Positions 4,408 to 54,937 of a stretch of 64,000 bases of DNA are shown in pieces (position 1 is the first letter of the stretch; the number at the start of each line of letters is the position of its first letter). Position numbers and translations under genes: made by a program. The notes beneath the pieces are model-generated. The model made no database searches. It was not told the origin of the DNA and saw only the letters and a program-made list of their open reading frames with translations. The DNA comes from a virus (lineage: Duplodnaviria; Caudoviricetes). The stretch lies in IMG/VR virus record IMGVR_UViG_3300024270_000002, one strand, 5' to 3'.

Positions 4408-4440
4408 GCTTTTTAAAGCATGAAAGGAGAGTGATGCTAA

Positions 4441-11351: not shown

Positions 11352-12386
11352 ATGAAAAGTTTGGCTGTAAAATATCGTCCTACTACTTTTGAAACTGTTG
11401 CTGGACAAAATGTAACTACAAGAATTCTTAATAAAGTATTGGAAAAGCAGGCTTTCAAGAATGCTTATCTTTTTGCGGGCCCTTCTGGATGTGGCAAAAC
11501 AACTTGTGCCCGTATTTTTGCTAATGCTATTAATGGAGGAATTGGTGAGCCTACGGAAATTGACGGAGCATCGAATAACGGAGTTGACCAGGTTAGAGCT
11601 ATCGTAGAGTCAGCTAATCAGAGAAGCCTTGTTGGCAATTATAAGATTTATATTATTGACGAGTGCCATATGATTACTTCCGCTGGTTGGAATGCTTTCT
11701 TGAAAGGACTTGAGGATTGTCCTGAATATACTATCTTTATCTTCTGTACTACAGAGCCTAATAAGATTCCTGTAACTATTCAGAACAGAATGCAGCGTTT
11801 TAATATTGCTAAGATTAGTGCTCAAGAAATCAAAGATAGACTCTTTTATGTTTGCCAGCAGGAAGGTTTTACTAACTATAAAGATACTTGTGAGCTTATT
11901 AGTAAGCTCTGTGATGGCTGTATGAGAGAAGCCCTTACAATGCTTGACCAGTGTGCTGACTTGTCTAATGATCTCAGCCTTGAAAATACCAAAGCAGTTC
12001 TCGGTGAGGCACCTTTTGAAAGAATGCTTAAGCTTACCAATTGTCTGATTGGTCATAATGAGCAGTTCACTCTTGTAGCTATTGAAACTCTCGCTCAGGA
12101 AGGTAAGGACCTTAAGCAGTTTGTAAACGAGTATCTTAGCTTTACTCTTGAGCTTACTAAGTATATCTTGTTCCAAAACATCGCCACAACAAATATTCCT
12201 GCTTATCTTGAGAACTCTGTTGACCCTATGATTAGTGTAAGGGCGACCACTTCTTTTGAGAATGCTTTAGGCTGGTTTAATAACCTTACTACTAAGCTTC
12301 TTGAGGTTAAGAATGCTATCAAATATGATACTTCAGTAAAGGCAGTTGTAGAAGCATATTTTCTTAACATTTGCCGCGGAATTTAA
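11352..12386 (+). CDS. dnaX: Clamp loader ATPase, DnaX (gamma-length)
   Basis: LAVKYRP, GPSGCGKTT, EIDGASNNGVD, IIDECHM, NAFLK, GCMREA. Confidence 0.92.
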   Translation: MKSLAVKYRPTTFETVAGQNVTTRILNKVLEKQAFKNAYLFAGPSGCGKTTCARIFANAINGGIGEPTEIDGASNNGVDQVRAIVESANQRSLVGNYKIYIIDECHMITSAGWNAFLKGLEDCPEYTIFIFCTTEPNKIPVTIQNRMQRFNIAKISAQEIKDRLFYVCQQEGFTNYKDTCELISKLCDGCMREALTMLDQCADLSNDLSLENTKAVLGEAPFERMLKLTNCLIGHNEQFTLVAIETLAQEGKDLKQFVNEYLSFTLELTKYILFQNIATTNIPAYLENSVDPMISVRATTSFENALGWFNNLTTKLLEVKNAIKYDTSVKAVVEAYFLNICRGI

Positions 12387-31739: not shown

Positions 31740-31762
31740 ACAAAGTAATGAAAGGCTATTAA

Positions 31763-32214: not shown

Positions 32215-32243
32215 AGAAGCACTCTAAAATTTAGGGTGCTTCT
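32215..32243 (+). terminator. Terminator
   Basis: AGAAGCACTCTAA...TTAGGGTGCTTCT. Confidence 0.75.
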
Positions 32244-32261
32244 ACTTTATTTGCTAAATTA

Positions 32262-32320
32262 TATAGCGGCTGCGGCGGCGGACTTAGCCTTTCACCGTTG
32301 TCGTGGTCGCTTTTCTTTTA
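32262..32320 (+). ncRNA. Candidate ~60-nt hairpin small RNA / leader attenuator
   Basis: Directly after late motif 32252; 16-bp stem 32266-32281/32295-32310 with six G.U pairs, 13-nt loop ACUUAGCCUUUCA, then TTTTCTTTT. Confidence 0.6.
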
Positions 32321-32348
32321 AATACTTTTCAGAAGGAGACTACTTCTA

Positions 32349-33098
32349 ATGATTATAAATAAACCGGCTTTAATAGAAGCTAAAAGAAAAAAGCGTAAAA
32401 AGAAGCTACCGTATAGTTCTCTCAGTTATACTACCGGAGATATTGGATTAAATATCGATAGGTTTAATCAAGCGATGGGCACCGACTTTGGCCAAGGTAG
32501 TACCGACAGTGGAGCTAATACAGGAGCTTCTGAAGGTGGAGCCCTCTGTGAAGCTAAGAGATATGTGCGTAGGTATTACATTCGCCCGCAAAACCTATTC
32601 TGTAGTAATAAGGCTGAAATAATTAAAGCTCTTATTGAAATCGGTAACGCAAACTGCTCAGTATATACTCTTAATAACCTTGGAGATGATAAAGATGTTT
32701 CTAAGCTTATGAATAGCGATATCATCTATTACTACGATGATGGAATTCTTTATGACAAAAATAAGGTAAAAGTAATGGACTATGACCTTTCTATTAAAAA
32801 GGAAGAAGATCGTAAACATTTTGCAAATGTAGATAAAGCGTCCGATAAAGAATTTAAGGCAGAGTATGAAGACCGTATGACTGATGCTACAGAACTTGAA
32901 GAAGCTTTTAATTTAGACTTTGACGACTACAATGTTTTCGGTGAAAAATTGACTGAAGCTAAAGAAAATTTTTGCTGCATCTGTGGTGAGCCTATTGAAG
33001 ATTATGGAAATAATCCTGAGCCGTATATGTCGTCTGATAAAGGACGTTGTTGCTCTGGGTGTCATTTAAAATTCGTACTACCTATTTCGGAGGTGTGA
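32349..33098 (+). CDS. Late hypothetical protein with C-terminal CxxC...CxxC Zn finger
   Basis: CCICG...CCSGC; LIEA/LCEA/LEEA/LTEA sites. Confidence 0.65.
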   Translation: MIINKPALIEAKRKKRKKKLPYSSLSYTTGDIGLNIDRFNQAMGTDFGQGSTDSGANTGASEGGALCEAKRYVRRYYIRPQNLFCSNKAEIIKALIEIGNANCSVYTLNNLGDDKDVSKLMNSDIIYYYDDGILYDKNKVKVMDYDLSIKKEEDRKHFANVDKASDKEFKAEYEDRMTDATELEEAFNLDFDDYNVFGEKLTEAKENFCCICGEPIEDYGNNPEPYMSSDKGRCCSGCHLKFVLPISEV

Positions 33099-33099
33099 T

Positions 33100-34563
33100 A
33101 TGGCAACGCCTGTAATAACTGATCCAAGGCAAGTAATGCCGACCGCAGAAGATTTCAAAAGAATACTAAAATCTAAAATACTTTATGAAGCAGCACAAAA
33201 GCTTCCAACTAAAGATTCTTGGAATAAAGCACATTTTAATGATACTCCTTGGGGAATTTCTTATAATGTAAGTATTGGTAAATATAATAAGTCTATGGCT
33301 TCCTATAATAAGGTTAGGAGAAAAGGTGCAGTACCATTACCTAAGCTAGATATCGCCCTAAAATATCTTATAGTGGCCATCGCAATCGATTGGCAGGAGC
33401 TTATTGACCAGCTAAAGCGCGCAGTAAAAAATTGGGGCTACACCACTAATGACTTGAAAAACGTTGCAAAGAACGTATGGAACGCGCCCGGCAATGCAGA
33501 GGAAATTGCAAAAATATGTGGAAGCGTTGTAGTCGACCCGCTAGAAGAACATCTCTCATTAGATCATCTCACGGAAGCTATCGAAAAACACGACTCTTTA
33601 AATAGCAAACTCTTTACAAAAGATGAGGTGCTTAAAGATAAAGTTCGTGATAAGATGCTCGAAATTGTAAATACCTTTTTGGCTGACCTTAAAGAACAAG
33701 ATATCAAAATAAAAGTTGATGATGTTTTATTTATCGGTTCAAATGCTAGCTATAATTATACAAAAGATAGCGATATAGACCTTCATATTGTAGCTAATAC
33801 TAAATCGGTAGATTACCCAGCTGAACTCGGAAATGCTCTTTATAGTGCCTACAGAAGTATCTTTAATAAAAACTTAGATATAACTATCTATGATATTCCT
33901 CTCGAACTTTTTGTTGAAATCGAAGATAGCGCTCGAGTAAGTAACGGCGTTTATTCAGTAAAGAAAAATAAATGGGTCAAGAAGCCTGTTCAAGAAGATA
34001 TTCCTGAGTATGATAAAGAAGCTCTTGACAAACTCGTTGATGAGTGGGAAGAAAAATGCAAAAAGCTTATTGACGACATAAAAGCTGACAAGCTCGACGA
34101 TGAGACAGAAGTAGTTAAGATGCTTGAAGATATCTATGAGAAGCTCCGCAAAAAAGGTGTTGCTAAGGGTGAGTATGCTATTGAAAACTTGGCCTTTAAA
34201 GAACTGCGTAATAAAGGTTACTTAGACCAACTTAAGGATTATAGAAATGAGCTTACTTCCAAGAGACTTTCTCTCGAAGAAAAGCTAGACAGACAAACTC
34301 GTGTCGATATTTATAATCAGCTGACGAGAGCTGCCGGTACTCAGCCTATTATTCAAGATAATGGAATGTTCTTTATATACAACTTAAAATCATCTGATGT
34401 TAATAGAGTACTTAGTATTATTCGAAATCTTCCTTTCGTGGCTGATGCTCAAGCAAACGAAAACGGTAAATATGACTTTTCTAATACCCTTGAGCTCGCT
34501 ATGAACAAGATGCCAACTAAATACTACAATATTCGCGGTATGATTAACTATCAAAATAACTAA
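33100..34563 (+). CDS. Pol-beta-superfamily nucleotidyltransferase domain protein
   Basis: FIGSNASYNYTKDSDIDLHI, ELFVE, GVYS, ENLAFKELR. Confidence 0.8.
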   Translation: MATPVITDPRQVMPTAEDFKRILKSKILYEAAQKLPTKDSWNKAHFNDTPWGISYNVSIGKYNKSMASYNKVRRKGAVPLPKLDIALKYLIVAIAIDWQELIDQLKRAVKNWGYTTNDLKNVAKNVWNAPGNAEEIAKICGSVVVDPLEEHLSLDHLTEAIEKHDSLNSKLFTKDEVLKDKVRDKMLEIVNTFLADLKEQDIKIKVDDVLFIGSNASYNYTKDSDIDLHIVANTKSVDYPAELGNALYSAYRSIFNKNLDITIYDIPLELFVEIEDSARVSNGVYSVKKNKWVKKPVQEDIPEYDKEALDKLVDEWEEKCKKLIDDIKADKLDDETEVVKMLEDIYEKLRKKGVAKGEYAIENLAFKELRNKGYLDQLKDYRNELTSKRLSLEEKLDRQTRVDIYNQLTRAAGTQPIIQDNGMFFIYNLKSSDVNRVLSIIRNLPFVADAQANENGKYDFSNTLELAMNKMPTKYYNIRGMINYQNN

Positions 34564-34590: not shown

Positions 34591-34647
34591 TTGTCCTAAA
34601 ATAATTTGCTAAATTATACAGTAATTCATTTGAAAGGATATAAAGTA

Positions 34648-35610
34648 ATGAAAAGACAAACACTACAAGAGCAATGTCTAACTGAATTACTTAAGCTAGA
34701 CGAGGCTACGCGTACTCAGCTGGTGGCACAGTCTAGAAATGCTGGAGTATATAAAGATCAATCTAGAGGCAAAACGAGATTCGAGCGTAAAAAATATTCC
34801 AAAATTGCTAATCAAGTAAAGAGTTTTAACCAGATTGACATGAATAAGCTCTTTAAACAAGATATTTTATTAGTAAATATTCCGGTAGTCGGAGAAACTG
34901 ATGAGTACACAGTTACAATCAAACTCGAGAGCGTCATAGCTGAGATACAGAAGAATATAAAAAATAACGGTAATAAATTCGAATATCGAACAGTACTTCA
35001 GTCGCTTACCAAGGTATTTAATACTACTGACGTCTATACAAAATGTCAATGCCCTGACTTCAAATATCGCTTCGCGCACTGGAACATTATAAAAAATGTT
35101 TCTGTAGACGACTCTGCTAGCGACCCTGGGCCAGGAAAAGGGATAGCTAACCCTAACGATGATAAAGGAAGAGGCTGTAAACATTTACTTTTAACGCTAG
35201 CCAATGGCGAGTGGATGATGAAGGTAAGTTCAGTAATAGTTAACTACTGTCATTTCCTATCCGAGAAAAAACCAGACGCGTTTTTGAAACTGGTATTCCC
35301 CAAACTCTATGGAGTTCCTGCTGACGAAGCTGACCAAAACGGAATTGTTGAAGATAATGAAGACCTAGAGACTGGTAAAGACTTAATTGATATTATTAAT
35401 GACTGGGCCAAGAAAAGAGGACACTTCAAGAAGGGAAGTAATATTAACCCCGTATATGCAGATAAGCTTTCTAAAGAGCAGGAAAAGAAAGCTAAAGAAG
35501 AACAGGAAAAAACGAAGGCTGAAGAACCTACTGAAGAGAAAGAGACTTCGGAAGAACCTGATACAAATAAAAACGAAACTGAAGAAGAAATGGAGAATCA
35601 AAGATCATGA
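34648..35610 (+). CDS. SWIM-type Zn finger protein
   Basis: CQCPDF...GCKH; ATG 34648 after TGAAAGGA; late motif at 34607. Confidence 0.7.
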   Translation: MKRQTLQEQCLTELLKLDEATRTQLVAQSRNAGVYKDQSRGKTRFERKKYSKIANQVKSFNQIDMNKLFKQDILLVNIPVVGETDEYTVTIKLESVIAEIQKNIKNNGNKFEYRTVLQSLTKVFNTTDVYTKCQCPDFKYRFAHWNIIKNVSVDDSASDPGPGKGIANPNDDKGRGCKHLLLTLANGEWMMKVSSVIVNYCHFLSEKKPDAFLKLVFPKLYGVPADEADQNGIVEDNEDLETGKDLIDIINDWAKKRGHFKKGSNINPVYADKLSKEQEKKAKEEQEKTKAEEPTEEKETSEEPDTNKNETEEEMENQRS

Positions 35611-39959: not shown

Positions 39960-39988
39960 GTTTTGTTAAAAGAAAGGTACTTAAATAA

Positions 39989-48963: not shown

Positions 48964-49473
48964 ATGTCAAATAATGTAAAAGACTACGGTGTACTTATAC
49001 GTGACGAAATAAAATTACATCGTATGTGGTTTAAACAGTGCGTTGCCTTACATGGGATTAACTGCAAATATAGAGCTCCTATAGGTAAAGATTACGATAC
49101 ATATGGGGATCTTCAATCTGGGTACAAGCCAGAAATTATTGTAGGTTGTTTATTTGAAGAGCATCCAAACCAAAAATCCCTGAAAAAAGCGGGCTGGGTT
49201 GCTGAACTACAAGAAGGCTCATCTATAATACATGTACCATATGACTTACCAGGACTTCAAGTCGGTGCACTATTTAAAGTACCAAGTGGGCTAGACAACG
49301 GCAATGGTCGGCTATTCCGCGTGATAAGTATGTCAAACATCATGATATACCCTGCTTCTATTGCTTGCGAAATTGCACTTGAGTACGAGTCAGTTGATGA
49401 ACAGCGACTAAGCACGGCTGCCAACGAAAAAGAAGATATGCCACTACTTATAGATAGAGAGGATGATGACTAA
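48964..49473 (+). CDS. Neck/head-closure protein, gp14-like
   Basis: LHGINCKY, LKKAGW, LQVGALF..P; position in neck cluster. Confidence 0.55.
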   Translation: MSNNVKDYGVLIRDEIKLHRMWFKQCVALHGINCKYRAPIGKDYDTYGDLQSGYKPEIIVGCLFEEHPNQKSLKKAGWVAELQEGSSIIHVPYDLPGLQVGALFKVPSGLDNGNGRLFRVISMSNIMIYPASIACEIALEYESVDEQRLSTAANEKEDMPLLIDREDDD

Positions 49474-53209: not shown

Positions 53210-53232
53210 TTAACTGAAAGGAGATTTAAAAT

Positions 53233-53900: not shown

Positions 53901-53975
53901 TTAATAAATCTATTTATCTTTTGCTAAATTATATGACGTGTTTATAAATATATCGTAAATGAAAGGAACCTTGCT

Positions 53976-54140
53976 ATGGGAAGAAAAAAAGTAGACAGGA
54001 GCGATAAAGTAATACAAACTTTTGAGTCGTCTAAGCCTTTAGTTGAAAGACTTAAACTTACTGCCAAAGAAAGAGATATTACAGTATCTGCGCTTATAAG
54101 ATATATTTTAGAGCACTATTTTGAAAATCGTGAGCTTTAA
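53976..54140 (+). CDS. Second RHH DNA-binding protein, 54 aa (not in ORF track)
   Basis: IQTFESSKPLVERLKLTAKERDITVSALIRYILE; TGAAAGGA RBS; late motif at 53922. Confidence 0.75.
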   Translation: MGRKKVDRSDKVIQTFESSKPLVERLKLTAKERDITVSALIRYILEHYFENREL

Positions 54141-54169
54141 AACTCACTCTAAAAGAAAGGTATATTATT

Positions 54170-54937
54170 ATGGAAATGAGACAAACTGACTTTACTATTA
54201 TGGAAGGCTATGAGCTTCCGTCAAAAGGAAAGATCTACAATGAAAATGTAAATCCACATGTTGAGCTGCGGTCTATGACAGCACGTGAAGAGATGCGCCG
54301 CTTGTCACCGTCTAGCACACCACTTAAGACCCTTGCAGATATTATCGAAGATTGCTGCATTGAAAAACCTGCCATACATGTATATGATATGAGCTTAGGC
54401 GACTATGAATTTTTACTCCATAAACTTAGAATAGTCACTTACGGCGAAGACTATAAAGTAGCACTACGCTGTTCTGAATGTGGAGAGCTGATTGAGACTG
54501 TTGCTAAGTTAGATCAATTAAATGTTAAGGAATTTGATGAGGAGCTTGTGCATAATCTTCAGACGTTTTCGCTCCCTAAGAGCGGTCGCACAATTACGCT
54601 AAACTTTTTAACACCTCGTAGAGTAGAAGAAACTGAGGTTAAAATAAAAGATATGAAACGTAGATATAAGACAGCTACTATCGATTTTGAAACACTTGTT
54701 CGTTTACTTATGAATATTGACCTTGTCGACGGAGATAAGAAAACAGAACACGAGCTTGAAAACTTTATTACTAACCTGCCGGCGCTTGACTTACAGAAGA
54801 TTTTAAACAATATTGATAAGCTAAATCAGCAGATTGGCTTGGATAATATTTTATATTTAACTTGCCCAAAATGTGGTGAGGAAATAACTACCTTTTTTCG
54901 CTTCGGGCCCGAGTTTTTTAGACCCTCAACTATCTAA
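54170..54937 (+). CDS. Tail/baseplate-hub assembly chaperone, gp26-like
   Basis: LPSKG, LRSMTAREE, LRIVTYG, CSEC and CPKC; FFRP end; before tape measure. Confidence 0.8.
   Translation: MEMRQTDFTIMEGYELPSKGKIYNENVNPHVELRSMTAREEMRRLSPSSTPLKTLADIIEDCCIEKPAIHVYDMSLGDYEFLLHKLRIVTYGEDYKVALRCSECGELIETVAKLDQLNVKEFDEELVHNLQTFSLPKSGRTITLNFLTPRRVEETEVKIKDMKRRYKTATIDFETLVRLLMNIDLVDGDKKTEHELENFITNLPALDLQKILNNIDKLNQQIGLDNILYLTCPKCGEEITTFFRFGPEFFRPSTI

Follow-up and report, generated by a model that had tools for sequence, protein, structure and literature searches.

A conserved phage hairpin RNA with an anti-Shine-Dalgarno-like loop behind a probable late promoter

The hairpin locus and its surroundings

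The stretch of DNA analyzed here (the window; 64,000 nucleotides, whose numbering is used throughout) belongs to a 128-kb contig that is part of the genome of a T4-like myophage, with Gp23, a Gp20 portal, a gp19 tube, and a prohead protease. The closer relatives of this phage measure about 200 to 237 kb. At the locus under study (Table 1), an intrinsic terminator ends the upstream operon and, as judged from its predicted structure, shields the next transcription unit from upstream read-through. That unit reads, on the + strand, TGCTAAATT (32252-32260), four bases, a perfect 17-bp stem, a 13-nt loop, and a U-rich tail, followed by ORF 32349 and a nucleotidyltransferase (NTase) gene. There are 15 copies of TGCTAAATT on the + strand of the 128 kb and 1 on the − strand, and the motif is found ahead of the prohead protease, tail sheath, RHH/hub, and putative fibre genes. 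Because these strand-biased copies precede structural genes, it is reasonable to infer that TGCTAAATT is a late promoter.

The hairpin was originally predicted as a stem with six G·U pairs that would work only as + strand RNA. All six pairs are present, and the stem reaches 17 bp once an outer A-U pair is included. Folding is indeed confined to the + strand, with a minimum free energy of −27 kcal/mol (z = −3.98, equaled in 0 of 200 shuffles) versus −11.4 kcal/mol (z = +0.35) for the − strand. Of all perfect stems of ≥13 bp in the 128-kb contig, this one has the most G-C pairs, and the CCUUUC core of its loop is predicted to be unpaired with a probability of 0.88 to 0.99. The U-rich tail is possibly a leaky terminator or a processing site, and it is not conserved across the family described below.

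The AlphaFold model of ORF 32349 was unusable (pLDDT of 45), and an Atlas search gave low-score leads only. Both ORF 32349 and the NTase are modular, with (L/I)xE sites between domains in the window (32349-34563) and in G006, G008, and G010, and inserted domains enlarge relatives to 640 to 1212 amino acids. A short pyrimidine run able to fold back over the Shine-Dalgarno (SD) sequence often lies 3' of the ORF 32349 ribosome-binding site (RBS), both in the window and in homologues.

Table 1. Features of the hairpin locus and candidate target sites, in window coordinates
Feature	Position	Strand	Basis or remark
RBS of neighbouring gene 31763	31749..31758	+	Match to the loop real here, not conserved
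Intrinsic terminator of upstream operon	32215..32243	+	13-bp stem and U-tract
Probable late promoter of the phage, TGCTAAATT, resembling T4 late promoters	32252..32260	+	Motif counts and downstream genes
Stem, 5' arm; probable RNA 5' end	32265..32281	+	+5 spacing from promoter motif
Loop, 13 nt	32282..32294	+	CUU and CCUUUC (32288-32293) near-invariant
Stem, 3' arm	32295..32311	+	Compensatory changes in 15/17 pairs
U-rich tail	32312..32319	+	7 U in 8 nt here
ORF 32349 RBS (AAGGAG) with short CUUCU able to pair over the RBS	32331..32347	+	Read from sequence
ORF 32349 (Cys-rich C-terminus, unassigned function) and Pol-beta-type NTase, co-transcribed	32349..34563	+	Weak NTase hits
GAAAGG RBS of gene 34648-35610	34632..34637	+	Candidate target in part of family
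GAAAGG RBS of 157-aa gene after portal	39972..39977	+	Candidate target; 6/9 genomes
GAAAGG RBS of RHH/Arc-like repressor gene 53976-54140	53961..53966	+	Candidate target
GAAAGG RBS of baseplate-hub gene 54170-54937	54155..54160	+	Best-conserved candidate target

A conserved RNA family with a covarying stem

Searches anchored on neighboring proteins or based on the pattern itself returned 59 distinct homologues, and several more were found later, bringing the family to about 65. They occur in T4-like phages of 160 to 237 kb that differ in GC content (27 to 52%), gene order, and genetic code. Covariation, which the original prediction had named as a check, is pronounced: in a 44-sequence alignment, 15 of the 17 stem pairs have changed on both sides while 94% of the cells pair. 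None of 500 shuffles reaches the observed level, and no slid register approaches it. This alignment was partly chosen on the loop, so the protein-anchored loci constitute the unbiased set, and they have the same fixed loop and covarying stem.

The architecture of the family is constant in some respects and loose in others. In 55 of the 59 homologues, the stem begins at +5 relative to the promoter motif, and nine out of nine genomes at 46 to 72% average amino acid identity carry a single copy at the same site. The stem varies from 13 to 19 bp and tolerates bulge insertions in its 5' arm. Across the deep lineages, the loop is invariant only at CUU and CCUUUC, the middle being AG, UG, AU, AUU, or GU, and the sole substitution within the CCUUUC core is a C-to-U change (L014) that can still pair with G. 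The loop end of L201 resembles the tail of 16S rRNA, and in L299 (4130-4230) the hairpin is extended by an inserted sub-helix and has the loop core CUUGUCCUUUC. Richness in G·U pairs, at first taken as a defining trait, turned out not to be one, as homologues range from 0 to 7 such pairs with a mean of 3.6.

A comparison with Rfam had also been suggested at the outset. No Rfam 15 model was hit at the gathering threshold by the window or by 12 distant loci, and searches in E-value mode gave sub-threshold matches only. Annotated phage genomes likewise contained no match to the element. On this comparative evidence, the hairpin is a real RNA family that lacks an Rfam entry and is hitherto undescribed. 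The analysis thus supports one part of the original prediction, a strand-specific, noncoding hairpin RNA with a promoter-proximal start and an anti-SD-like loop, and shows it to be conserved.

GAAAGG ribosome-binding sites as candidate targets

The invariant CCUUUC corresponds to the distal end of the Firmicute 16S anti-SD (in five Lachnospiraceae genomes, 16S rRNA terminates in CACCUCCUUUCUA), and its exact complement, GAAAGG, stands before roughly a tenth of the phage genes. The longer word TGAAAGG had been noted at 4421, 34631, 53960, and 62348, all of which we confirmed; further copies are at 53215 (the tail tube RBS) and at 11701 (within a gene). The accompanying claim that such sites mark a regulated subset of genes fared unevenly: the GAAAGG class is conserved on the RHH gene and on gene 34648 but not on the polA C-fragment, which has GTGAGG in G001 and G004. 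The label "SWIM" given to gene 34648 was not returned by Pfam; a CxC...CxH pattern in the protein is recognizable by eye only.

When orthologous RBSs were compared between lineages, GAAAGG ranked first of 134 words in conservation (kappa = 0.355). Because SD classes are fairly conserved in general (kappa = 0.30 for GGAGG), GAAAGG is at the top of the range rather than an outlier. RBS counts here depend on gene starts from a purpose-made, SD-scored caller, which may bias them. The baseplate-hub gene has kept its GAAAGG in all 18 readable copies, including homologues with as little as 44% protein identity. The RHH gene has it in eight of nine genomes and at six of seven further loci, and in G008 and G010 its RBS and the cognate loop match perfectly over 12 bp. 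Of the 21 near-clade copies of gene 34648, about 20 have GAAAGG, which has been lost in several distant lineages, and an NrdD-like gene has it in six of seven cases. The RHH and hub genes form a two-gene unit after a late motif (53922-54937), with the repressor gene first and GAAAGG at both RBSs, and the two follow each other in this way in the genomes in which both could be read.

The bases next to GAAAGG also vary with the loop. Loops with a G before CC go with C or U after GAAAGG in 38% of RBSs versus 14 to 17% elsewhere, and loops with an extra U go with AA after GAAAGG in 60% versus 15 to 25% elsewhere. At control AAAGG sites, C or U stays at 7 to 12% and AA at 13 to 15%. The co-variation of loop and target that had been proposed as a check is therefore partial: the bases after GAAAGG shift as predicted, but the shift comes from only two independent loop changes. 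G006, of similar GC content, also has AA after 42% of its GAAAGG sites.

Other observations temper the case for these targets. The seed is typically 6 to 7 bp, short for stable repression, and no single long duplex is conserved from genome to genome. G002 carries the hairpin and has an RHH RBS without GAAAGG, while G012, with no hairpin at the usual site, still keeps GAAAGG at the hub. Retention of GAAAGG in hairpin-less lineages is mixed (0 of 10 in G013, 2 of 8 in G012), and the two genomes would be invalid as a negative control if the RNA has relocated to their unsequenced parts. In G013, no GAAAGG RBS is present among 100 called genes.

A possible late regulator of translation

The reading that we prefer, and in which we place about half of our confidence, is that this is a late small RNA (sRNA) that pairs in trans with GAAAGG-type RBSs and works like RsaE or RNAIII. 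A hairpin sRNA of ~50 to 60 nt would be transcribed from the phage late promoter, with its 5' end buried in the stem and thereby probably protected from exonucleases. In the near clade, the RNA would be the first part of the 32349-NTase transcript, from which leaky termination or trimming back to the stem could release it. Its pyrimidine loop would then present the CCUUUC core as a copy of the distal host 16S anti-SD and pair with GAAAGG RBSs, mostly over 6 to 8 bp and at most over 12, so as to compete with the 30S subunit for these sites. The expected outcome would be lower translation of mostly late genes (baseplate hub, RHH repressor, 157-aa gene, and 34648) and possibly also of host messages with a GAAAGG RBS, while the commoner AAGGAG and GGAGG sites would be largely spared. 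Shut-off of early genes is not favored because GAAAGG precedes 14% of the first genes behind late motifs and 6% of those behind sigma-70-like motifs. We also considered and rejected a host shut-off through RBS avoidance: relative to Lachnospiraceae genomes, the phage does not avoid GAAAGG (5 to 13% against 11 to 16%), an observation that also counts against the preferred reading.

There is precedent for such a mechanism. RsaE/RoxS, RNAIII, and FsrA are established cases of C-rich loops that pair to SD sequences (PMC4152353, PMC6158497). Like these RNAs of Staphylococcus aureus (RNAIII) and Bacillus subtilis (FsrA), and like RsaE/RoxS, the phage hairpin carries an unpaired pyrimidine loop motif complementary to the SD, and as in those systems several targets and a Firmicute host are probable. 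With its conserved unpaired motif, it may belong to the C-rich-loop anti-SD sRNAs as a functional class. What sets it apart is that it is encoded by a phage, behind a probable late promoter, that it consists of one ~55-nt hairpin instead of 100 to 500 nt, and that its seed is CCUUUC (the distal anti-SD, reading GAAAGG), where the others use UCCC or CCUCC. There is no sequence homology to them and no Rfam match, and the targets of the phage RNA are predicted only. Membership in the RsaE/RoxS family itself was rejected, given the absence of an Rfam hit and a single CCUUUC loop in place of a duplicated UCCC.

Sorting of mRNAs by an SD word is also known from T4, whose RegB endoribonuclease cuts GGAG (PMC3014915). 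The likeness, a T4-like phage that distinguishes messages by their SD, is a functional analogy only: RegB is an early protein nuclease, whereas the sorter proposed here would be a late RNA that reads another SD word. On the comparison of these sequences with known systems, we regard the mechanism suggested for the RNA family as plausible.

Plasmids and phages also encode antisense RNAs with U-turn (YUNR) recognition loops, such as CopA and the c4 RNA of P1 and P7. The present RNA resembles them as a short, stable hairpin with a recognition loop and a YUNR sequence at the 5' side of that loop (CUUA, CUUG, UUUG). Unlike them, it has neither an overlapping antisense target nor long complementarity, and its loop is 13 nt.

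Alternative explanations

Pairing to GAAAGG leaves one feature of the loop aside: target pairing does not explain the invariant 5' CUU and final A. It is conceivable, although we judge it on balance unlikely, that the trans-acting RNA binds a protein rather than mRNA, as a decoy or ligand that mimics the 16S 3' tail or the anticodon loop of tRNA-Glu(UUC) (CUUUCAC). Such an RNA could soak up a host defence nuclease or RNA-binding protein or could partner a phage protein. What makes this a serious rival is that CUU and the last A have stayed the same with no target to match them, and the entire loop is conserved beyond what targets would need. It is in line with the lack of a conserved long mRNA target, the loop could close through C·C, U·U, and U·U mismatches, and in G001 an apparent tRNA-Glu has CCUUUCAC in its anticodon arm as well. 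Yet there is no tRNA-like 5-bp stem with a 7-nt loop, and five homologues (L201, L200, L300, L133, and L299) deviate at the positions that would correspond to A37/C38. Contig-edge genes excepted, no phage gene in the shared region was lost together with the hairpin in G012 and G013, and protein binding would predict neither the conservation of the RBSs nor the concerted shifts of loop and RBS. The narrower idea of a tRNA anticodon-arm mimic was rejected, as the flanks of the 13-nt loop form no 5-bp stem around a centered 7-nt anticodon loop.

Trans pairing and protein binding both treat the RNA as acting away from its own transcript. The hairpin might instead act in cis on the 32349-NTase operon, as a 5' leader or an attenuator, in which a stabilizing stem and a leaky terminator would dose a possibly toxic NTase. 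We consider this quite improbable, even though the 32349-NTase pair is syntenic with the RNA in most of the family, the tail is U rich in the near clade, and no further late-promoter motif precedes the downstream genes. A long GC-rich stem at the 5' end of a transcript, with a U-rich tail in the near clade, does recall an intrinsic terminator or a 5'-stabilizing stem-loop. However, the number of U residues in the 8 nt after the stem ranges from 2 to 7 across the family (mean of 5.0; mostly 4 to 7 in the near clade and mostly 2 to 5 in distant members), whereas true upstream terminators ahead of syntenic homologues average 6.5. Among homologues, the SD lies anywhere between 9 and 31 nt from the stem, pairing of the loop with the RBS downstream of it is weak (mean of −4.3 kcal/mol), and an attenuator would have no need of an invariant 13-nt loop.

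RNA and gene also separate in both directions. In three distant genomes (G321, G322, and G323), the same promoter, stem, and loop stand in unrelated gene surroundings, each copy ending in a terminator of its own or a U9 tract, and no ORF 32349 homologue was detectable in G321 (94% complete) or G323 (100% complete). Conversely, the gene is found without the hairpin in G012, G013, L458, and L459. The promoter motif is present in all copies of the RNA; a clear terminator is present only in the three relocated ones, and the tail in the window is at best a leaky U-tract. Since the RNA occurs without the gene and the gene without the RNA, the unit under selection would be the RNA itself, and we conclude from these genome comparisons that the hairpin is a free-standing RNA and not an attenuator. 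The suggestion that it doubles as an attenuator for ORF 32349 is not supported as a conserved function, and assignment to the attenuators or intrinsic terminators as a class was rejected for want of a conserved U-tract and a fixed gene linkage. Attenuation may be a side role of the hairpin in the near clade. The sister lineages G012 and G013 retain the promoter with no hairpin before the 32349 homologue (L184:2597 and L185:3819).

The loop was originally proposed to be antisense to the RBS of the neighboring gene 31763. Positions 32285-32294 are indeed the exact complement of that site, the coding strand has no second 10-mer of this kind, and the pairing is the second best among the RBSs of the contig. 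Because TGAAAGG is an ordinary RBS word (the near clade has it in 29 out of 917 RBS windows) and a 10-nt match to some RBS of the contig has an estimated chance of about 10%, the match alone is weak evidence. In G009, the homologue of gene 31763 also has GAAAGG and matches its own, different loop over 9 nt. Of about 30 homologues of the gene, however, GAAAGG is found in one, that of the window itself, the others having unrelated RBSs in the presence of the same or a similar loop, and L006 has the hairpin with the gene missing at the site. A dedicated antisense RNA for gene 31763 is therefore very improbable and, as a conserved function, largely refuted; cis-encoded antisense was rejected in that the complementarity is not conserved with the RNA.

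A short leader peptide, an ordinary terminator, or a chance GC island is hardly credible and, on the alignments, already refuted: some gene callers do start the downstream protein within the hairpin and an ATG lies near the 5' end in about half of the variants, but it is missing in the others, frames differ, insertions in the stem cause frameshifts, and third positions in the loop hardly change, while a real terminator lies just upstream and covariation excludes chance.

Two other RNA targets were considered. A conserved complementarity of the loop to the Cas9 tracrRNA nexus (AAGGCU.GUCCG), which would make the hairpin an RNA anti-CRISPR, was discarded since GCC is replaced by UCC in distant members and the GGAC flank is missing from them. 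A presumed complementarity to 23S rRNA was dropped as well, with 12-mer hits in five Lachnospiraceae genomes that were scattered and had no multi-copy rRNA pattern.

A second small RNA and RBS wording as a possible address

Beyond the window, at about 85105-85195 in its numbering, lies another conserved small RNA, which ends in a CCUCC-loop hairpin followed by a U-tract. It is present in six genomes (the contig itself, G001, G002, G004, G007, and G009) and, in the near clade, stands behind a sigma-70-type promoter. Its presence in the family counts in favor of the preferred reading. We tentatively suggest, while thinking it rather doubtful, that the anti-SD is split between the two sRNAs, with the RNA behind the sigma-70-type promoter directing CCUCC against GGAGG and the late one CCUUUC against GAAAGG, so that the type of RBS would serve as an address for staged translational control of phage and host messages.

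To our knowledge, trans-acting sRNAs of lytic Firmicute phages have hardly been described, and our literature search for the CCUUUC-loop motif found no such phage sRNA. The family adds a compact, deeply conserved RNA to large gut-type phages. If late pairing in trans to GAAAGG sites is correct, phages could use the wording of RBSs as a regulatory address, and it would be explained why an uncommon RBS is retained on a low-copy baseplate gene in every relative examined. The 55-nt scaffold would be easily tested in a laboratory Firmicute.

Hosts and genetic codes

SD usage in these genomes suggests a Firmicute host. Among 301 genomes of the family of G015, there was no spacer-like match, and placements in metagenome-assembled genomes point to Bacteroidales, Lachnospiraceae, and Waltera, which may be mis-binning.

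TGA is read as Trp in G006, G007, G008, G010, G012, G017, G324, L342, L457, and L459, and the standard code is used by the present genome, G001 to G005, G009, G011, and G014. This mix resembles the mixed-code clades described previously (bioRxiv 10.1101/2021.08.26.457843). An in-frame TAG breaks polymerase motif A in the present genome (4441-4530) and in G009 near 49234, and G001 and G004 read through at this motif.
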